Shown here: positions 1 to 58,517 of the stretch, piece after piece
Layout of the letters: every line of letters begins with the position of its first letter
Numbering within the stretch: the first letter of the stretch is position 1
IMG/VR virus record: IMGVR_UViG_3300024299_000001
Location: 64,001 to 128,000 of that record
Strand: one strand, 5' to 3'
Length of the DNA stretch: 64,000 bases
Source: a virus
Position numbers and translations under genes: made by a program
Notes under the pieces: generated by a model
Told to the model about the DNA's origin: nothing
The model's input: the letters and a program-made list of their open reading frames with translations, nothing else
Databases searched by the model: none

Positions 1-3000
1 ATTGTAAAAAGCAGCAGCAATTGTAATAGCTTTATTCAATGGAGTCCTGGCTTGTTGTATGTCTCCATAGATTTTATCTATAGCCTGAGTTAAGGCCTTA
101 CCATGGTATTTATTAGTAAAAGCAGCAATATCTTCATAGATACTGGGATTAAGTTTAATCTTTAATAAAGCTTCTTTATTTAAATTTCCTTCAACACCAG
201 CAATATTGGCAGGAATAAATAATGCTTTTGGGTTATTAGCTAAAGTATTAGTGTAACGAACAAGTTCTCTTAATTCATCAGCTGCAGCTGGACGAGTAGG
301 GTCTTCTAAAATCTTTTCTAACTTAGCTTTAATACCATCTTCAATTATTGTAATGACTAAACCTCGTTTAATCTTACCATGACCGGAGCCATATAAAGCA
401 CCTACAGCTCTATTCTTAGCTAATTTACGTACAGCCTTATCTAAGAAGCCTTTACTATCTGTAAGTTTTCCTAATAAGAATTCTGCAGCTTCCATGCGTT
501 TATAAGTTGCAGTATCCTTAGCAGCGATCATAGTCTTTTTTAATTGGTTCACTAAAGCGCCCCAACCGGCCCCAATAGATTGGTAAGGATCATAAGGAAC
601 AGTATCTGTTTCTACAGGATTCTCAGTAAACACCATACCTTCACTGGCTGCAATACCTAAATTCTTTATAGTGGGTAAACTTAATAATAACTGGATACCG
701 CCAATAGTTGGTCCATTTGCCTGACCATCAATCTCTACTGGAAGAGAAGTAGTAAATTTACCAGCACCTGCTCTTTGAAATCTTTGGTACTCAAGAAGAC
801 CTTTTAAAGTATGAAGGTCTTCGCCACCTTCTTTAATACCGGCTAAAATATCAGCCTCTAAGTCTGGTTGAGCTTTACGTAAGGCTACCATCTCATCTGG
901 TGAGTACTCAGTATGCTGTTCTGCGGCTGATAGGAATACATCAATAGCAGCTAAAGCAGATTGTATTACTGGACTTTCTAAAATATCAGTTGTTTTTTGT
1001 TGCACTATAGCCATAGATGCTTCTTTAGTAGGATCCACTCCTAATGAGAGGCCTACTGCTGCTTTAAATAATTCAACTACTTGTTCATCTGATTTATCAA
1101 AAGTGGCTTCCCAAGCTTTATTTTTAAACAGAAATCTATGGGTCATACTATTTTGTGGTTGAATAGGACCTGCTTGTTGCATTCGTCCAGTAGCAATAAA
1201 ATAAGATTGTATAAAGAAATTAGAAGCATACTTAGCTGTTTCTTTTTTAGCATTGTGTAACCAGAAGCGTACTGCATCCAGATCAAGTTCAATTTTACGA
1301 TTAATACTCTCTCTGTGTTTATGTCGGTCATGTGTTGCATCATTAATGTTTACTGCACCAGCTGCAGTTCTCTGTCCAGCATTAGTCAGAAAAGTAAATA
1401 TATTCATAACACCATGGGATAATCCATAAGGTTGTTCAATATATTGTTTTAAATTATTGGTTTGAGGGATTGTTGCAAATTCACTTGTTCTGGCCAATGG
1501 CCACTTTTCTTTATCATTTTCCCAGGTGGGTTTGGTAAAAGAGTAGTCTAACGGATCTGCTGTTAATTTAAATAATTGTTCCCAGACACCTTTACCATAT
1601 TCATAATCTGTTCGTGTCTGGGTATTTGCATTTGTTAAGGCTTCAAATGAAGTCCCATCTTTTAATGTAACAACCTTACTAGCAATACGAAAGAAATCTA
1701 CTTTAGTAGTGTTTTTTCTGTCTATAACATCTTCTTTGGCTACATCTAGTCTTTGATCAGGAAGAATAAAAGTATTTATTAATTGAGGAGAGAGTGGAGC
1801 TTGTGGAGTATTTAACATATGATTACGTAAACCATAGAATCCTAAAGTAATCTTTTCTGTTTTTACAGGAGTACTGGGTATTCTTCCGGCATTAACTTGA
1901 GTACGCTCTACTCGACCCATACGATCTAATGTAGCCAATAACAGAGTACCAAGATCTTGTTCAATGAGCTCTCGGTCAAATACACCAATATCTTGAGTAG
2001 CCTTGATCTCAAACATCTTAATAACATCTTTACCCAGCGTTCCACTCAAATAATCTTTGGAGGCGCCAATACGACTAACCAAAGCTCTAACATCTTCAGA
2101 GATTTCCTGACTCTCTTTAAGATTAAATATTTTACGAATACTTTTGTCATCATTTATTAAGGTTTTAGGACCTTGAGTTGCTAACCACTTCCAAGCAGTA
2201 GCTGACATGGCCATAAGAAAGTTAGGATTTAGTTCACCATTAACTCTAAAATAATTAACAGCATCTTCATAAAAGAATTTTTCATTTGCTTTTGGTTTAA
2301 AAGTTTTAAGTAATGTAGCAGAGAATTCTTTATTAAACTTCATTAAAGCAATTGCTGCTTTTTCCTGATCTGGATTTAAAGAATGATTTTTAGATAATAT
2401 CTTTTTACGCATTGCTGCAACAAAATCAGGAATCTTATTTAATAAACTCTTAGGGCCGGCTTTACCATAAATTGGTTTAAAAAAAGCTCTAAGCGTATTA
2501 ACCCATAATCTGTTATTGGCTAAATCAGTATTATTTGTGTTACCTGGGGTAAGAGATTCTCTATCAATACCTGTTTTATCAGTTAATTGTTCAGCTAAGG
2601 GTGTATGTTTTTCAGAAGCTGTTTTTTCATATAATTGTTTTCTGCGATTTTGATATTCTGTATTATAAGAATTTTTCCATTTATTAGTTTTAGGATCAAT
2701 ACCTAAAGCTTCCATTATACTATCAGGATCTGTTGTTATAGGGTTATTCGAAATAAAAGCAAAATCAGTCTCTGAAAAATTTCTATTTTTTAATTCTTGT
2801 TTAATACTATCATAATACTCTTGTTCATTACTTGCGTATCCTTGAGCAACTTCACCATAACGAAGATGCTCAGAAATATCTCCTTCGTAATTTTCTTTAT
2901 CCAACTCATCCATTAAAACAGAAGTAGCTGTAGTACTATGATCATACTTAATATTCTTTTTTGAAACAGAATACTGTCCTTTAGGTATGATAATATCTTT

Positions 3001-6000
3001 TTTTGTAACAATCCTTTGTTCCCGTTCATCACCTACTACTCTTTCATCAGTAACAGCAGTTCCACCTTGTCTATTTAAAGGAAAGATTTTATCAAGATAA
3101 TCAATATTTATTTGTATAATAAAAGGATTTTTAGAATACCGATTTCCATACTCTTCTGCTAATTCTTTATCTTCAGCAAAAGAAATTCCAGTATTTTTAA
3201 ACAAGGAATCATGAGTAGGGGTTAAAACTAAATTACCTTTATCGTCTATATAAGGAGCCTCTTCCTGCCCCCTAAATAAAGTTTTTTCAGATGGCTCAGA
3301 CTCAGAAAATGCCGACGCGTCGTCAGCATTTTCTTCGGGTTTAGAGCCATCTTCTTTCTTTGGTTTCTTTTCAGTTGCATGCTTTGTTCTAAGTACTGCT
3401 TCAATTTCTTGTCTTCTGTCAGTATTAGTTTTTTCAGTATTCTGATAAAGAGTTTGTAATTCCGCTTTGGTCATTTCTTCTAATGTTAAGAATGTTTCAG
3501 ATTCATCCTGACCAAAAAAAGTATCTTCCTCTTCAACTACAAAATCTTCTTGTACTGGTGTAGTTGTTTCAATATCTTGGTCTGTTTTATAGGCTTTTAA
3601 ACCTAATTCTTGTGCTGTTGCAGTAAGAACTTTACCTGTATTTGTTTTTATTTCAATACTATAACCAGTAACAGTTTTTACCCCATTAACTATACTGAAG
3701 CTATCTGGAATCACATTACCAGTTACCTGAGCTTTAAAGGTACCAGTGTATTTAGGAAAATCAACAGTAACCCATTTTCCTTTATTTGTTTTAACTAAAG
3801 AAGTTATTTCTTGCTCAGCACTCAAAGGTTGTTCATTACTTCCGACTTCCTCTGAGGAAACATCTTCCGCTGTCGCTGCAGAAATTTCCTCCTCCTCAGT
3901 CTCAGACTGAACAACCTTTTCGGCAGTAGGCTGAGCTTGGGGAGGGGTGATCATATCCTGTGCAACTGAAAGAGCTTCAGACAGAGAATCAGCCTCACGC
4001 TCCATGGATTGAATTGAAGCTTCAAAGTTTGTATTAAAGTCATAATCGGCATTATAACCAATTGATGCACGTTCAGTGTTCAGTTGTTCTAAGAATTTCT
4101 GATCAGCCGCAGAGAATGTTTTAATGACTGCTTCTTGTTCTTCAGTTGTTTTAGCTTTTGCTTTAATTACTGCATCCTGAAGTCTACGAAATAAATCAGC
4201 TTTAATGGCATGTCTTTCAGTGAATGCCTGAAGATCTGATAACTGAGATTTAGCTAATTTGGTGTCCTTATTTTGTGTTGCAATGGCTATGGATTGCAGG
4301 TAGCCCTTGATACCTTTAAATTTATCTTTGATTCTACCATTGATAATATCTTGGTTCACCTGCACAGATGTCTTGTTTATAGGGCTTTTTTGGCCCTCTA
4401 GAGTCGCTTTGGCACTTTTCTGATAGGAGAGTATGCGTTTGAACTTAACCTTCGTTATATCGTCTATTTTGGGGTTATTCAGGACCTCATTGATATCAGC
4501 ATCTGTAAAATCACCTTTTGAACCAAAAACAGTAAGAATAGCTTCCTGGATCTTAACAGAATCAGAACCCTTAAGAATTGTCTTAACTTCTTTGAGTTTC
4601 TCAGGTGAAGCAGTCTCTTCTCGGCCCATACTATCGATGACCGGTACTATCTGATCTATGATGGCTTTAGAGGCCATGGCTTGTTTCATTGCAGAGACGG
4701 CTAACTCACCCTCTTCTTTAGTAAGTTCTCTTTCTTCTTTAATTGCCTGGTACTTCTGTACTTCTTTAATTTGTTCCTGGAATTCAGCATCTACTGCATT
4801 ATGGATCTCTATTGCTTTATCATGATTGGTTATTTTAACCGATGGATCCAGATCTTTCTTTTGATTAATCTGTTGTAATGCTTCAGCTGCCAATACAGGA
4901 TTATCTTTATGCATGGAAATGTCTTCTGTTTCAACAGCAGCTGATAATTTATCTTCATAACCTAATTGTGCTTTAGGATTCGCTTTAACCCTGAGAGCTT
5001 TACGTTCTGCTTTACGTTCAGTAGATTCTTGCTGTTCCTGTTCTGACCGAGTAAATACTCCGCCTACACTGGTAACCGGTCCACCAAGTGAACCAAGCAT
5101 ACCAGCATCAAACTGTTCTTTACGAGATTCAGCAGAGAAAGGATTCTTACCAGTACCCCATTGTTCAATGGCTGTTTGCGCGTACTCTTCAGCAAATTCA
5201 ACAGGAGCAACTTTACCTGCGGTTACACCAACTCTGGTAGCTTTGCCGGCCACACCACTTACTTTTTTACCTAATCCACCAATGGTACTGAGGCCACCTT
5301 TTAAAGCTTTTACATTAAACAGTAAATCTAAGTATTCAACTGCTCCGGCCAGTCCAGTAGCAATTCCAGCTTTCTGGATTTGTTTCCAGGTTACATCTGC
5401 TTCCTGGGATAGAGTACCAAATATCTCACCACCCTCTAAACCAAAACCAGCAGAGGCCATACCAATATGGGTACCAGCTTTACTGGTTACAGAAGATATT
5501 GCTAATTTAGATACTGAATCAGTTGCAGCAACTTTAGCAATGTTTTCAGTAGTTACTTTAGCACCTTGAGTAATTAATTGCTGTTTAGCTATCCGATCAG
5601 CTTCTTTCTTAACTAAACCACCCATAAGCTTACTAATTGCTTTTTTACCAGTAAGCTCCACACCGGTTTTAATAATACCACTACCAACCAACAAGCTAGT
5701 TAATTGCCCGGCCACATAACCCGAACCATGGGAGAACCAAGAAACTAATGCTTTCCAATCGCCTTCTTTAGCTTTTTCATAAGAGTAAGTAAAAGAATCT
5801 TCTGGTTGGGCGCCCACACCAATGTCTTGTTCAATTTTATGATACTTACCAGCAGCCGCTTCTTTAATCTTGGTAGCAATACCACCTTCCCCTACAATCT
5901 TTTCAGCCACAAGAGCACCGCCAGCTACTACACCTGAAGCTAACATAGGAATGCCCTTAACTGATTCTACAACACCCCGAGCTGCTGCTTCAGGAAGAGT

Positions 6001-36390: not shown

Positions 36391-37273
36391 TAAGTTACAA
36401 AGGGCTTCATAAGAGCAATCTTATGTCGAAAACTATCTAAACGGTGAAACACCTTGACTAATGGAAACCCTTAACATACAGTGGGGTAACTATTAATTTT
36501 AAAGCGAGGTCAATACCGTGCTAAATACTAATAACATTACAGAAATTTGGGTACCGATTAAAAATTTTGAAAAAAGATATGAGGTATCTAATTTAGGAAG
36601 AATACGCTCTATTCAAGATAATCATCATAATTATCGTATTAAAATAATAACAGGTTTCATAAGATCAAAAACTTGTCAATATTTATATGTACAATTATGG
36701 CGAAAAGATAAACCAACAACAAAAGCAGTTCATCGATTAGTAGCACAAGCATTTAAACCAAATCCTTATAATAAACCAATGGTTAATCATAAAGATGGTA
36801 TTAAAATAAATAATATTGAAACAAATATTGAGTGGGCTACTAATTCAGAAAATGTTAAACATGCTTTTACAACTGGGCTACAGGATAGAGAAAAATGTGT
36901 AAAGCGAATGATTGGAACTAAATTTAACACCAGATCCAAATACAAAAATGTATCTTGGGATAACTCCAGAAAAAAATGGATTGGTGGTGTTAAACACAAA
37001 GGAAAAGTTATTAAAAATAAACGTTTTAATAGCGAAATAGAGGCAGCTTTACATGTTAACTGGATTATAGATACTTATAATTTAGACCGTCCAAAAAATG
37101 TTATTAGTTAAATTGCGTAACGACCATCCCGCAAGGGAGTACACTCAAGTGAGTGGAAACGGTAGTCGTCCTGCTTATAATAGTAGGATGTTGATATGGT
37201 CTATTCTGCATGGTAACATGCAGCAGTTCAGAAGAGAACGGGTAAAGATTAACGAACTTTATCGAATATTAAG
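36391..37273 (+). mobile_element. group I intron with HNH homing endonuclease, inside the AAA+ ATPase gene
   Basis: The exon halves join in frame as ...DPTDL(L)GFPFI... The 5' exon ends in U and the intron ends in G (36390|36391 and 37273|37274; alternative 36391|36392 and 37277|37278). The segment ctatctaaacggtgaaacacc resembles the T4 td-type core. The 3' core (37136-37170, gagtacactcaagtgagtggaaacggtag) is shared with the intron at 56.2-57.1 kb. Confidence 0.75.
36518..37111 (+). CDS. HNH homing endonuclease (NUMOD4 + HNH_3 + AP2-like), intron-encoded
   Basis: GTG start after GCGAGG. Motifs: WVPIKNFEKRYEVSNLGRIRS (NUMOD4), VHRLVAQAFKPNPYNKPMVNHKDGIKINN...EWATNSENVKH (HNH) and YKNVSWDNSRKKWIGGV (AP2-like). 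Confidence 0.85.
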   Translation: MLNTNNITEIWVPIKNFEKRYEVSNLGRIRSIQDNHHNYRIKIITGFIRSKTCQYLYVQLWRKDKPTTKAVHRLVAQAFKPNPYNKPMVNHKDGIKINNIETNIEWATNSENVKHAFTTGLQDREKCVKRMIGTKFNTRSKYKNVSWDNSRKKWIGGVKHKGKVIKNKRFNSEIEAALHVNWIIDTYNLDRPKNVIS

Positions 37274-53896: not shown

Positions 53897-56053
53897 GTGA
53901 GAGATTTACAGACGTTAACTTTTCATCCAACTGCTGAAAAGATTGTAGACATACTCTGTAAGAAAACCCAGAATACCAATCCAATGTTCTTCAGAGTATT
54001 AATCAGTTATTATCTTGCAAAGATTACAGCTATGATGCGGGTTAAGATTGCTACTCAGGATAGAGGTGAAATACCTGTAAATCTGTATGCAATTAATTTA
54101 GCGCCCAGTGGACAGGGTAAAGGCCATTCAACTAATATAATTGAAGAGCAGTTAATTGATAAGTTCAGATCAACATTCTTTGATGTAACTGAACCAATTG
54201 TATCAGCTGAAAACTTAGCCAAACTGGCAGTAGAACGGGCCTTTGTACATAATGAGGATCCAGATACTGTTGAAGTGAGAGTTAAATCAGAATTTGCTGC
54301 TTTAGGCGCCTTAGCCTTCTCATTTGATTCAGGCACTACTGCTGCTATCAAACAGATGCGGTATAAACTATTAATGGGTGGTATTGGTTCAATGAATCTG
54401 GAGATAGATGAGATTGGCAGCAATCTATTAGGTAATGCTGATGTACTCTCTTCTTTCCTGGAACTATTTGATGTTGGTAAAATCAAACAGAAGCTAACCA
54501 AAAATACAAAAGAAAACCTTAGAGCAGAAGAGATTGATGGTAGGACGCCTACTAATCTTTTACTATTTGGTACACCCAGTAAATTATTAGATGGTGGCCG
54601 AACTGAAGCTGAATATGATTCTTTTCTGGAAACCGGTTATGCTCGTAGATGTATCTTTGGTTACACTAAAACAACCAAAAAAGACAAAACCTTAACACCT
54701 GAACAACGGTATAACTCTTTAACGGATGCTACAATAAGTGATTTTATATCAGATACCTCAATTGCTTTTGGGGAACTGGCTAACATAGCCAATTATAATA
54801 AAACATTATTGGTATCCAAAAAAGTAAGTATCCTAATTATTGAGTATACCATGTATTGTGAAGATTTAGCTGAAAAGATGGGTGAGCATGAAGAGACGGC
54901 TAAAGCAGAGATGGCTCATCGATACTTTAAAGCCCTTAAGTTAGCTGGCTGTTATGCATTCATTGGTAATGAAGTAGAAATCACTGAAGATAATTTTTAT
55001 CATGCAGTTCATATGATCGAAGAATCAGGTAAAGCTTTTAATCGTATGTTAACCCGGGACAGGGCTTATGTAAAATTAGCTAAGTATATTGCCAGTATCG
55101 GCCGAGAGGTTACTCATGGCGATCTGTTTGAAGACTTGCCATTCTATCGTGGTTCTAATCAAGTAAAACAAGAGATGATGCAATATGCTATTGATTGGGG
55201 TTATCGTAACCATATCGTAATTAAACATGTTACGAATAATGGTATTGAGTTCATTACAGGCGAGACCCTTAAAAGAGTTGATTTAGGAGCTTTACGAATT
55301 GCTCATAGTGCAGACATCTCAGATAATTATGCAAATGATCCAGCACCATGGGACAAGATGCACATCTTAACTCAATTGCCTCATCATAATTGGATCAACC
55401 ATTTTACCATGAATGGCCATCGAAGTAATGATACCCTTAAGCCAGGCTTTGATTTAATTGTTTTGGATATAGATGATAAAGGCGTTACTATTGAAGCAGC
55501 TTCAAAATTATTAGAAGACTACAAATTCTTCTTATATACTACAAAACGTCATACACCAGTTCATCATCGATTCAGAATAATCTTACCAATGAATTACCGG
55601 TTAACACTGGACACAGATGATTACAGTGAGTTCATGTGTAATATATTTGAATGGTTACCATTTGATGTGGACATCCAGGCAAAAGACAGATGCCGTAAAT
55701 GGCTAACCCATAAACACTTCTTTACTTACAATACTGGTATTAAATTAATTGATGCCAGATTATTCATTCCTCGAACCAGTAAGAATGATGAAAGAAAGAA
55801 AACAATTCAAACATACCAGTCTTTAAGTAATATACAGCGTTGGTTTGTACAGAATTCTACTATGGGTGGCCGTAACAACCAATTAGTCCGTTATGCTTTA
55901 GTTTTAGTGGATATGGGCTATCCAGTAGATATAGTTGAAACCCAGGTTAAGAAACTTAATGCCGGGTTACCTGACAGTCTGCCGGATAAAGAAATTGATG
56001 ATACTATTATGAGAACAGTATCTAAAGCAATTATTAAAAGAGAAAAACCATAA
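53897..56053 (+). CDS. primase/helicase-like replication protein (N4 gp42/43 position)
   Basis: 718-aa ORF with a GTG start after AAGGAGG. It has a P-loop-like NLAPSGQGKGHS and a C-terminal LIVLDIDDKG ... HHRFRIILP (primase-polymerase-like acidic motif). Confidence 0.45.
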   Translation: MRDLQTLTFHPTAEKIVDILCKKTQNTNPMFFRVLISYYLAKITAMMRVKIATQDRGEIPVNLYAINLAPSGQGKGHSTNIIEEQLIDKFRSTFFDVTEPIVSAENLAKLAVERAFVHNEDPDTVEVRVKSEFAALGALAFSFDSGTTAAIKQMRYKLLMGGIGSMNLEIDEIGSNLLGNADVLSSFLELFDVGKIKQKLTKNTKENLRAEEIDGRTPTNLLLFGTPSKLLDGGRTEAEYDSFLETGYARRCIFGYTKTTKKDKTLTPEQRYNSLTDATISDFISDTSIAFGELANIANYNKTLLVSKKVSILIIEYTMYCEDLAEKMGEHEETAKAEMAHRYFKALKLAGCYAFIGNEVEITEDNFYHAVHMIEESGKAFNRMLTRDRAYVKLAKYIASIGREVTHGDLFEDLPFYRGSNQVKQEMMQYAIDWGYRNHIVIKHVTNNGIEFITGETLKRVDLGALRIAHSADISDNYANDPAPWDKMHILTQLPHHNWINHFTMNGHRSNDTLKPGFDLIVLDIDDKGVTIEAASKLLEDYKFFLYTTKRHTPVHHRFRIILPMNYRLTLDTDDYSEFMCNIFEWLPFDVDIQAKDRCRKWLTHKHFFTYNTGIKLIDARLFIPRTSKNDERKKTIQTYQSLSNIQRWFVQNSTMGGRNNQLVRYALVLVDMGYPVDIVETQVKKLNAGLPDSLPDKEIDDTIMRTVSKAIIKREKP

Positions 56054-56072
56054 ACTATAAAGGAGGTTAAGT

Positions 56073-56189
56073 GTGGTCGATCAAAATGATAATCTTGTAT
56101 TAATTGTTGGTTCAAGTGGTGGTGGTAAATCAGCATCATTACGGGATATTAAAGATCCCCAAAATGTATATTACTTCAATTGTGAAGCT
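56073..56189 (+). CDS. Sak4/AAA_24-like recombination ATPase, exon 1 (N4 gp44 position)
   Basis: GTG at 56073, 6 nt after AGGAGG. VDQNDNLVLIVGSSGGGKSASLRDIKDPQNVYYFNCEA contains Walker A. The in-frame stop is at 56193. The exact 3' boundary is uncertain. Confidence 0.65.
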
Positions 56190-57117
56190 AAATAATTGGC
56201 TTCGTTAAACCCATTGAATTGCTGGAAACCCCAAACAAATAATGTTGTGGGCAATCAGCAGCGAAGACTTAACGTGTCTTGACAGAGCAGTTTAAATATG
56301 GTACTTTGAACAACTTCTCAATTAAATAAAGGAGAAATTGTATGAAAGAATACATAGAAGAAACTGAAACTGGAATTTACAGAATAACCGAAAGAGGTAA
56401 GATCTTTTCCCAAAGTAAGCTTAAAATACCTATTGTGGGAAAAGGTATGCAACATACAGGAAAATTCCACATGATAACAAAACCTGAAAGGGAACTAACA
56501 TATACTCTCAATAATAGAGGGTATTTATCAGTAGGAATTATGAAAAAAACTTTTATGGTGCATAGATTAATCGCTAAAGTATTTGTAATTAATCCGTGTA
56601 ATAAGCCTCAAGTGAACCATATTGATGGTAACAAACTAAATAATTGCGCTTTAAACTTGGAATGGTGTACAGCCCAAGAAAATATCCAACATGCTTATAG
56701 AATTGGTATAAATAAAGGATGTCTTGGGCTAAAACGCATATATAGTAGTGCCCAAATTAAAGCTAAATGTCTTGCAAATTTAAAGAATAAATCTAAACTG
56801 ACTCCTGATGAAGTCAAATATGTTAGAAAAGTATATATTGCAAGAGATAAAAATTTTAGTTGTACTGCATTAGCTACACAATTTAATGTTAGTATCGCCG
56901 CCATGAGTAAAATTGTAAAAAGACAGTCCTATCAACACATTAAGTAACGTTCAACGACTATCGAAAGCATCTTATATAAGATAAGCAAGTAGAGTACACC
57001 CAAGTGGGTGGAAGCGGTGGGACGTAGAAATACGTATGATATAGTCTACTCTCATATGAAAGTATGAGCAGAGTTAAAAGCTCGATATTAGCGTAACGAA
57101 CTAATATGAATATAAGG
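56190..57117 (+). mobile_element. group I intron with HNH homing endonuclease, inside the Sak4-like ATPase gene (boundaries approximate)
   Basis: The 5' core GAATTGCTGGAAAC (56215-56228) and CAATCAGCAGC (56252-56262) is shared with the helicase intron. The 3' core gagtacacccaagtgggtggaagcggtgg (56992-57020) is shared with the AAA+ ATPase intron. Walker A lies in exon 1 and Walker B in exon 2. The candidate 3' splice site follows G57108 or G57117. Confidence 0.7.
56342..56947 (+). CDS. HNH homing endonuclease (HNH_3 + C-terminal HTH), intron-encoded
   Basis: VHRLIAKVFVINPCNKPQVNHIDGNKLNNCALNLEWCTAQENIQH, and a C-terminal HTH CTALATQFNVSIAAMSKIVKRQSY. Confidence 0.85.
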   Translation: MKEYIEETETGIYRITERGKIFSQSKLKIPIVGKGMQHTGKFHMITKPERELTYTLNNRGYLSVGIMKKTFMVHRLIAKVFVINPCNKPQVNHIDGNKLNNCALNLEWCTAQENIQHAYRIGINKGCLGLKRIYSSAQIKAKCLANLKNKSKLTPDEVKYVRKVYIARDKNFSCTALATQFNVSIAAMSKIVKRQSYQHIK

Positions 57118-57732
57118 AATAAAAAATTACCATTTCCAGCTAAATTTCAACAGTTTAATATTACCAATCCTTACCAGGTTCATGAGGGATTAGTACATGC
57201 TGAATCCAAACCTGATATTCATACTATTGTAATTGATAGTTTAACCTTTTTAATGGATATGTGTGAGTTACAGTTTATTCTGGATGACCGGATAACTGAT
57301 ACAATGAAAGGATGGGCCGAATACCAAAAATTCTTTAAAAAACTTATGCAGGAACATGTTGCAAAGTCTACAAAGAATATCATATTCACAGCCCATGTTC
57401 AGTCAATCCTTAATGAGACAGATATGGTTCTTGAGAAAAAGGTACCTATTAAGGGTGCTTTAAAAGCAAATGGTGTTGAGGCTTATTTCAGTACTATTGT
57501 GAGCGCACGAACCATAACGGTAAATAAACTGACAAACTTTAAGAATCCACTACTTACTGTTACACCTGAAGAAGAAACTTTAGGATTTAAGTATGTATAC
57601 CAAACCCAATTAACCAAAGAAACGGTCAATGAAAGGATCCGTGCCAGTATGGGTATGTGGACCCAACAAGAAACTTTCATTGATAACAATGCACAATTTT
57701 TAATGGATCGATTACATAAATACTATGTGTAA
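57118..57732 (+). CDS. Sak4/AAA_24-like ATPase, exon 2
   Basis: KKLPFPAKF..., Walker B HTIVIDSLTFLMD, IIFTAHV. The track ORF starts at 57106, and the true exon start is 57109 or 57118. Confidence 0.65.
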   Translation, partial: NKKLPFPAKFQQFNITNPYQVHEGLVHAESKPDIHTIVIDSLTFLMDMCELQFILDDRITDTMKGWAEYQKFFKKLMQEHVAKSTKNIIFTAHVQSILNETDMVLEKKVPIKGALKANGVEAYFSTIVSARTITVNKLTNFKNPLLTVTPEEETLGFKYVYQTQLTKETVNERIRASMGMWTQQETFIDNNAQFLMDRLHKYYV

Positions 57733-57764: not shown

Positions 57765-58517
57765 ATGAGTTTACTTGATCAACTAACAACTGATGACAAA
57801 GACATCCAGCAAGAAACTGATTCCGTTGGAACCAGTTTTTCACCCTTAGAGAGTGGTCTATATCTGCTGAAGGTTATATTTGCTTATATCACCATCTCAG
57901 CAGGTGAAGCCATGGCCCTAAACATTCTGTTTGAGACCCCAACTAAACAGAGAATCAGACAGCAGTTCTGGATGACTTCCGGCAAGGACAAAGGTAAGAA
58001 GAATTTCTATATCAACAAGAAGACTAAAGAAAAACACTACTTACCTGGTTTTAACCAAGCTAATGGTATTGCCCTGCTGACTTGCAACAAAGGCATTAAC
58101 CAGATGGTAACTGAAACCAAAACCATTAATCTCTATGATTATGATCAGAAAAAAGAAGTACCAAAAGACGTTGACATGATTGTAGAGCTGATTGACAAAG
58201 AAATTACTGCCGGTGTCATTAAACAGATTGTTGATAAAAATGTTCAAAATGATACTGGAGCATATGTACCTTCCGGTGAGACCCGAGTTGAAAATGAAGT
58301 AGATAAGCTTTTCCATACTGATGGCCGTACCATTACTGAAATCCGGGCTAAAAAACCAGCTACTTTTAAAGATACCTGGCTTGAACGTTGGGAAGGAAAA
58401 GTTAAAGACAAATCTGCAGCTAAAGCAGGAGTAGTTAGTGGGGCCCCTAAAGCCAATAAAGTCCAGACTGCTACTGGTGGAACCACTGCTAAAGCAGATT
58501 CACTCTTCCAGGATTAG
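57765..58517 (+). CDS. single-stranded DNA-binding protein-like (N4 gp45 position)
   Basis: 250-aa ORF following the ATPase, as in N4. Its flexible A/G/T-rich C-terminal tail ends in ADSLFQD. Confidence 0.5.
   Translation: MSLLDQLTTDDKDIQQETDSVGTSFSPLESGLYLLKVIFAYITISAGEAMALNILFETPTKQRIRQQFWMTSGKDKGKKNFYINKKTKEKHYLPGFNQANGIALLTCNKGINQMVTETKTINLYDYDQKKEVPKDVDMIVELIDKEITAGVIKQIVDKNVQNDTGAYVPSGETRVENEVDKLFHTDGRTITEIRAKKPATFKDTWLERWEGKVKDKSAAKAGVVSGAPKANKVQTATGGTTAKADSLFQD

Follow-up and report, generated by a model that had tools for sequence, protein, structure and literature searches.

An HNH-encoding group I intron very probably splits the Sak4-like ATPase gene of an uncultured phage

Gene callers give the Sak4-like recombination ATPase of an uncultured phage as a piece of 208 amino acids (aa) without the ATP-binding loop, which raises the question of what separates this piece from the start of the gene. 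The locus was analyzed in a window of 64,000 nucleotides (nt), bases 64001-128000 of the 131,274-bp IMG/VR virus record IMGVR_UViG_3300024299_000001, which has direct terminal repeats; positions are those of the window unless another sequence is named. We conclude that the segment 56190-57117 is very probably a group I intron of the subgroup IA type, with an HNH open reading frame (ORF), that splits the Sak4-like ATPase gene. Recognition of the intron restores a protein of 243 aa. The split of the gene, the conserved and covarying RNA core and the family of the endonuclease are all established. A first-pass annotation of the sequence had assigned to the Sak4/AAA_24 ATPase gene the third group I intron of this phage, with an HNH ORF, and the matches to the Rfam model RF00028 on both sides of the ORF, the covariation and the match to Pfam HNH_3 bear this out. 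It had also described the core as a mosaic of the two other introns, located in a helicase gene and in an AAA+ ATPase gene, and this part is not supported.

Exons and splice junction of the Sak4-like ATPase gene

The gene and its insert consist of the following features.

56060-56066, plus strand: Shine-Dalgarno sequence AAGGAGG of exon 1, read from the sequence, 6 nt ahead of GTG56073
56073-56189, plus strand: exon 1 of the Sak4-like/AAA_24 ATPase gene, 39 codons, with Walker A motif GSSGGGKS and the end ...YFNCEA; aligns with the N-termini of uninterrupted homologs of ~240-250 aa
56190-57117, plus strand: probable group I intron, 928 nt, subgroup IA type, without P2 (RF00028 half-matches, helix table, RNAalifold consensus and empty-site comparison)
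56342-56947, plus strand: ORF for an I-HmuI-like HNH homing endonuclease, 201 aa (606 nt), with its own Shine-Dalgarno sequence AAGGAG at 56329-56334; sits in the P6 loop
57117, plus strand: predicted terminal G (omega-G) of the intron (homolog alignment, length match and same-site relatives)
57118-57732, plus strand: exon 2 of the ATPase gene, NKKLPFPAKF..., with Walker B motif HTIVIDSL, 204 codons and stop; Pfam AAA_24, PHROG 124

Exon 1 had been proposed as a 39-codon ORF from GTG56073 with the motif GSSGGGKSAS, and such an ORF is present behind the upstream AAGGAGG. Its frame continues past 56189 into AAA and then a stop codon. The frame of exon 2 is open from 57097, with an ATG at 57106. 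Exon 2 contains the Walker B motif ascribed to it and matches Pfam AAA_24 at 41.2 bits (cut-off 27) and PHROG 124, "Sak4-like ssDNA annealing protein", at 7.6e-28. The joined gene has both ATPase motifs, Walker A from exon 1 and Walker B from exon 2.

Homologs of the exon-2 protein were found in 469 phage records and, among the matches listed, are mostly annotated as Sak4-like. A search with this protein returned 1409 homologs, nearly all of them ~240-250 aa long and thus extended by ~40 residues at the N-terminus. We aligned 29 homologs across the junction. All 27 that have a Walker A N-terminus read NCE[A/S]-[N/G]KK[L/C]PF without extra residues, and the remaining two themselves run into intron sequence. 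The closest homolog, P0002 (81% identity), reads YFNCEANKKLPFPAKF at this place. Because the homologs read through NCE[A/S]-[N/G]KK without extra residues, exon 1 is predicted to end at 56189 and exon 2 most probably starts at 57118, so that U56189 would be the last base of exon 1 and G57117 the last base of the intron. The 5' splice site agrees with the one proposed earlier.

Joining 56189 to 57118 yields a gene of 732 nt, which is the length of the intron-less Sak4 gene of the syntenic relative L007 (2232-2963; gene order primase, Sak4, 250-aa gene). The two genes are 76% identical in an ungapped alignment, and the empty site in L007 reads GAGGCU^AAUAAA (^ marks the junction here and below). 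An exact-pattern scan of IMG/VR for the intron-less junction NCEA^NKKLPFP with a degenerate pattern gave no match; the intron-less alleles were obtained by protein searches.

Structure of the intron RNA

The insert matches RF00028 on either side of the ORF, at 56138-56340 with 19.5 bits and at 56848-57068 with 21.6 bits. The alignment to the model covers the conserved J3/4, P4, J4/5, P5, P4', J6/7, J8/7, P7 and P9, and the joining segments J3/4 AAU, J4/5 AAA, J6/7 and J8/7 GAUAUAGUC fit the consensus. The elements of the core, all on the plus strand, were assigned as follows.

56184-56189 / 56198-56203: P1, exon GAAGCU with internal guide GGCUUC; U56189·G56198 at the 5' splice site
56210-56216 / 57015-57021: P3, CCCAUUG/CGGUGGG; spans the ORF and covaries in relatives
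Between the P3 5' strand and P4 (5' core 56210-56263): J3/4, AAU, from the RF00028 alignment
56220-56225 / 56255-56260: P4, all positions pair
56230-56233 / 56248-56251: P5, all positions pair
56261-56263 / 56948-56950: P6, GCG/CGU; spans the ORF and covaries in relatives
56264-56280: P6a-like hairpin AAGAC/GUCUU at the base of the ORF-bearing P6 loop, all positions pair
Between the P6 3' strand and P7 (3' core 56948-57068): J6/7, UCAAC, from the RF00028 alignment
56956-56961 / 57041-57046: P7, all positions pair
56967-56986: P7.1, covaries
56997-57010: P7.2, covaries
57022-57035: P8, hairpin
57051-57068: P9, hairpin
57085-57107: P9.2-like hairpin AUAUUAG/CUAAUAU; hairpins of other sequence at the equivalent place in L004 and L054

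Introns at the same site of Sak4 were found in L054/L055 (the same contigs as L009/L014) and in the ENA scaffolds L004 and L005; in L005 a run of N covers exon 1 and the 5' core, so that only its 3' half is usable. P1 follows the exon in the three same-site lineages, with GAAGCU/GGCUUC in the window, GAGUCU/GGACUC in L004 and GAGAAU/GUUCUC in L009/L054. In a helix table of 11 introns, P3, P6 and P7 are fully paired despite sequence changes (P6 occurs as GCG/CGU, GCU/AGU, GGC/GCU, GGU/ACU and GCC/GGU), and P8 and P9 are hairpins of differing sequence. RNAalifold applied to eight 3' cores predicted P7, P7.1, P7.2 and P9, with double (compensatory) changes in 17 of 22 pairs. Overall, compensatory changes among relatives affect P1, P3, P6-P9, P7.1 and P7.2, those in P7.1/P7.2 including CACCC/GGGUG versus CACUC/GAGUG, GGAUC/GAUCC and others. 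The presence of P7.1/P7.2 between P7 and P3' is a hallmark of subgroup IA (Michel and Westhof 1990), and given this arrangement the Sak4 intron is of the subgroup IA (IA2-like) type.

RF00028 matches at exactly three places in the 131-kb genome (four partial matches, two of them in the Sak4 intron), and each of the three introns contains the J8/7-P7 motif once, with no further copy in the window. Introns of other phages without an ORF in the core scored well above the cut-off of 50 bits.

L019: other host gene, RF00028 97.9 bits, no ORF in the core
L098: Sak4, 359-nt intron, RF00028 94.8 bits, no ORF in the core
L018: other host gene, RF00028 90.5 bits, no ORF in the core
L010: other host gene, RF00028 82.9 bits, no ORF in the core
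Aes508: DNA polymerase, annotated intron, RF00028 73.3 bits, ORF-less

L018 contains two separate full-length matches within ~1.2 kb, at 1087-1357 and 1977-2268 (minus strand), with 90.5 and 74.6 bits.

Several observations weigh against the assignment or its details. Splicing is proposed here from the DNA and not from RNA. A search of the whole window with Rfam at the gathering threshold (50 bits for RF00028) gave no match, and the intron as a contiguous stretch scored below 50 bits; an E-value scan of 8 kb with Rfam gave no match either, the half-matches appearing only with short stretches. The low score is likely due to the ORF inside P6, which splits the core. The unconstrained minimum free energy (MFE) fold of an ORF-deleted intron construct recovered P1, P4, P5, P7.2, P9 and P9.2 but neither the long-range or pseudoknotted P3/P6/P7 nor P8. 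The absence of P3 and P7 is expected, because a pseudoknot cannot be represented in unconstrained folding. Finally, P10 has only ~3 bp, and a second in-frame G, at 57108, lies directly 3' of the P9.2 hairpin.

The first-pass annotation had left exon 2 to start at either 57109 or 57118. A 3' splice site after G57108 would allow the same 3-bp P10 with the next bases, AAU, and L004 has an equivalent G in frame. Use of this site would add the residues Asn-Ile-Arg, which are absent from all 27 uninterrupted full-length homologs; only the junction at 57118 reproduces the 732 nt of the intron-less allele, and the equivalent G of L054 is out of frame. The pair of candidates was thus well chosen, and the earlier start is the unlikely one.

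It is scarcely credible that the gene is split without splicing, that is, that a free-standing endonuclease gene was inserted and that polypeptides of 39/40 aa and 208 aa, the latter from ATG57106, assemble. ATG57106 does open the downstream frame, but no Shine-Dalgarno sequence lies upstream of it, a group I core that is complete and covaries lies on both sides of the ORF, and P1 pairs the end of the exon with an internal guide that covaries with the exon in relatives.

As a group I intron, the insert would be transcribed within the pre-mRNA of the Sak4-like ATPase, and its RNA would fold into the P1-P9 core. An external guanosine would attack after U56189, at the U·G pair in P1, and the freed exon 1 would attack after G57117 and join 56189 to 57118. 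This ligation would restore a Sak4-like gene of 243 codons (...YFNCEA^NKKLPF...). By analogy with known systems, translation of the 606-nt ORF looped out in P6 would be directed by the ORF's own ribosome-binding site and yield an HNH endonuclease of the I-HmuI type. In a mixed infection this enzyme may nick or cut Sak4 alleles that lack the intron, close to the point of insertion, and repair of the cut allele would copy the intron in.

The HNH endonuclease

The protein encoded by the ORF matches Pfam HNH_3 at 27.1 bits (3.3e-6, cut-off 24.8), PHROG 59 at 1.2e-38 and the I-HmuI structure PDB 1U3E at E = 1.3e-8 over residues 37-140. Its activity as an endonuclease and its target are presumed from these analogies. 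Orthologous endonuclease ORFs (59-77% identity) are present in the Sak4 introns of phages whose Sak4 is only 54-65% identical. In the same-site relatives L054/L055, L004 and L005, the endonucleases are 62-77% identical to that of the window.

In L004 the endonuclease ORF (3404-4008) is split by a frameshift near 3508 into pieces of 35 aa and 166 aa, either because the homing endonuclease has decayed or because the assembly is in error.

The frameshift, taken as decay within the lineage, and the short P5 of the window intron, whose 5' core measures 60 nt as compared to 90-115 nt in L004, L009, L010, L018 and L013, would fit a decayed, non-splicing intron in a Sak4 pseudogene. This reading has next to no probability: all core helices and the conserved junctions are intact, the intron of L019 has an equally short P5 and yet scores 97.9 bits, the endonuclease ORF of the window is intact, and the exons are conserved, being 81% identical in aa sequence to the nearest relative without the intron.

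A predicted hairpin within 56304-56348 (56311-56319 with 56332-56340) would mask the endonuclease Shine-Dalgarno sequence up to the AUG, an arrangement that recalls the translational control of I-TevI. Its MFE is -8.6 kcal/mol (z = -1.78), and 10 of 200 shuffled sequences fold as well. The hairpin is only weakly better than shuffled sequence and is not claimed as a feature.

Distribution among related phages

Sak4 relatives were gathered from IMG/VR with an alignment query; a query with a single protein reached only three loci. The comparison with related phages advised at the outset revealed a polymorphic site, with the gene uninterrupted in 72 and split in nine of 81 evaluable relatives. The presence/absence pattern of the Sak4 intron is that of a homing element. 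Two other contigs, L011/L024 and L016/L025, share exon 1 with the window, encode an exon-2 protein 100% identical to its own and have an intron of exactly its length; the arrangement therefore persists in nature.

A megablast search of 3 kb against GenBank phages revealed no close relative, the sole match being the 3' core, in introns of Aeromonas phages. The GenBank phage records matching the intron number 95 for the 5' core and 218 for the 3' core. We conclude that the Sak4 intron is unexceptional: it belongs to a family of introns that is very widespread among phages, and it reveals no new mechanism.

Two of the same-site scaffolds contain mis-called genes, P0013 (L005:3101-3823) and P0017 (L004:4001-4792), whose N-termini are translated intron 3' core running into exon 2.

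A second class of Sak4 introns, located 3 nt downstream of the window site, was observed at L059:1515-2500, L074:1534-2500 and L098:825-1183, and also in L076 and L081. These introns have the junction NCExG^KKLPF and a P2 hairpin. The endonucleases of L059 and L074 are 59-61% identical to that of the window, and L098 represents a 359-nt form without an ORF.

Relation to the two other introns of the phage

The description of the core as a mosaic was based on short blocks that recur in the helicase intron (41515-42494) and the AAA+ ATPase intron (~36391-37273). These blocks exist, although the coordinates given for their partners were off by one base. Positions 56215-56229, in P3/J3-4/P4, equal 41562-41576 of the helicase intron (15/15), and 56252-56262, in P4'/P6, equal 41599-41609 (11/11). 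The 3' block 56992-57018, in P7.2/J/P3', matches 37137-37163 of the AAA+ intron at 24 of 27 positions. Failure of the similarity under a proper alignment had been named as a possible refutation, and the similarity persists: in a whole-genome search the 5' core is 79% identical to the helicase intron over 57 nt (E = 2e-7) and therefore similar beyond chance. The three HNH proteins are related, as had been noted (E = 1e-17 to 1e-22, 35-49% identity over the N-terminal HNH part). The location of the ORF, in P6 of the Sak4 intron and in P8 of the helicase intron, agrees with the observation that almost the whole core of the helicase intron lies 5' of its ORF.

Global alignments of the Sak4 intron with resident and outside introns gave the following counts of matches per aligned positions.

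Helicase intron, same phage: 5' half 43/60, 3' half 61/73
AAA+ intron, same phage: 5' half 34/42, 3' half 76/95
L004: 5' half 56/60, 3' half 79/99
L019: 5' half 49/57, 3' half 81/94
L009: 5' half 43/50, 3' half 99/117
Aes508: 5' half 34/48, 3' half 96/115
L010: 5' half 42/50, 3' half 89/100

Of the two resident introns, that of the helicase gene is the nearer one for the 5' half (43/60; AAA+ intron 34/42 aligned, score 12), and that of the AAA+ gene is the nearer one for the 3' half (76/95; helicase intron 61/73, score 15.5). Together with the two exact blocks and the 24/27 block, this is the pattern expected if the 5' half derived from the helicase intron and the 3' half from the AAA+ intron. 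However, such an origin is very improbable, for the blocks are not confined to this genome. The 15-mer and 11-mer shared with the helicase intron are present together in at least 116 IMG/VR contigs, and 25 contigs contain the 27-mer in common with the AAA+ intron when any base is allowed at its three variable positions. A 26-mer of the 5' core is exact in 11 contigs and in four host-gene contexts besides Sak4, and the helicase intron departs from it at several positions. The 28-nt P7.2 block is identical in the DNA polymerase intron of Aes508; in the AAA+ intron, by contrast, 3 of 27 positions are different, and two of these form a compensatory pair. The P7.2 of the helicase intron also has the AAGU loop and the GAAG joint. 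The intron of L009/L054, at the same Sak4 site, resembles the window intron on both halves, and therefore no donor within the genome is needed; L009 has the exact 26-mer in its 5' core, its lower aligned count reflecting a long P5 extension that the window intron does not have.

Thus, for both halves closer matches are found in introns of other phages than in the resident ones, and the shared blocks are those parts of the core that a large family of phage introns conserves most. The similarity pattern is as expected of three diverged family members and is not evidence of recombination among them. Of the proposal of one family of related, possibly recombining introns, the relatedness stands and the recombination among the three is not supported. 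The resident helicase and AAA+ introns belong to the same broad family and carry related HNH ORFs, but they are more distant from the Sak4 intron than are introns of other phages.

The introns that contain the exact 26-nt 5' core in the four other upstream exon contexts are those of L010, L012, L015 and L017; of L013; of L018; and of L019.

For the helicase intron, the Rfam alignment takes AACGGGGAAU within 41674-41704 as P3'. A better P3' is UGCGGAA, which pairs 7/7 (2 G·U) with UUCCGUG and lies 3' of a P7.2 hairpin GAGAUC-AAGU-GAUCUC. The helicase intron therefore also has a P7.1/P7.2 region of the IA type.

Possible module exchange among Sak4 introns

Two insertion positions, separated by exactly 3 nt, are used within one conserved codon block: the window, L004 and L054 have the junction NCEx^NKK, and L059, L074 and L098 have NCExG^KK. 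Introns at both positions carry orthologous HNH endonucleases (59-79% identity). The P7.1/P7.2 module was compared in the following regions.

Window 56962-57014; L004:4009-4116; L054; L001:2463-2581

The module is of a long type, including the identical 28-nt block, in the window (56962-57014), in L054 and in the Aes508 polymerase intron, and of a short type, CCC-GNRA-GGG, in L004, L059, L074 and L098. The division into long and short modules does not follow the endonuclease tree, and either an exchange of modules or separate histories of core and ORF may lie behind this; with 81-89% ultrafast bootstrap the tree is only moderately supported, and the idea of exchange therefore stays a hint. Tentatively, and with somewhat less than even probability, the Sak4 introns taken together may preserve a record of how phage group I introns are re-targeted and exchange modules. 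If so, mosaic evolution would occur in this family, with introns of other phages as the partners and not the two resident ones.

Comparison with known phage introns

In overall design, the Sak4 intron is the same as the td intron of phage T4 with its endonuclease I-TevI, an intron of subgroup IA2 that has P7.1/P7.2, carries its ORF in the P6 loop and interrupts a gene of nucleotide metabolism. In contrast to the Sak4 intron, td has a P2, and I-TevI is a GIY-YIG and not an HNH enzyme. The introns of the Bacillus phages SPO1 and SP82, with I-HmuI and I-HmuII, are likewise phage group I introns in a gene of DNA metabolism with an endonuclease of the HNH_3 type. Their host gene is that of DNA polymerase, as compared to the Sak4-like ATPase here, and their HNH proteins are nicking enzymes, an activity that is only suggested by analogy for the protein in the window.

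The best 3'-core match among GenBank phages is the annotated ORF-less group I intron in gene 43B, a split DNA polymerase gene, of Aeromonas phage Aes508 and relatives (JN377894). It is 79-81% identical over ~110 nt (96/115 in the global alignment), its 28-nt P7.2 block is identical to that of the window, and its long P7.1 has the same architecture. It differs in P3-P5 (34/48), in the lack of an ORF, in its host gene and in the phage family (Straboviridae). A group I intron with an HNH endonuclease has also been reported in an N4-like phage, in a host gene other than Sak4. A literature search within the searchable library found no report of an intron inside a Sak4-like gene, and the Sak4-like ATPase is a new host gene among the phage genes colonized by HNH-bearing group I introns.

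Neighboring genes

In the window, the split gene is preceded by a DNA primase gene (53897-56053; PHROG 2135, E = 5e-300) and followed by an SSB gene (57765-58517; PHROG 743). In L059, a tRNA gene (4077-4149; RF00005, 76.6 bits) is located ~1 kb downstream of Sak4.

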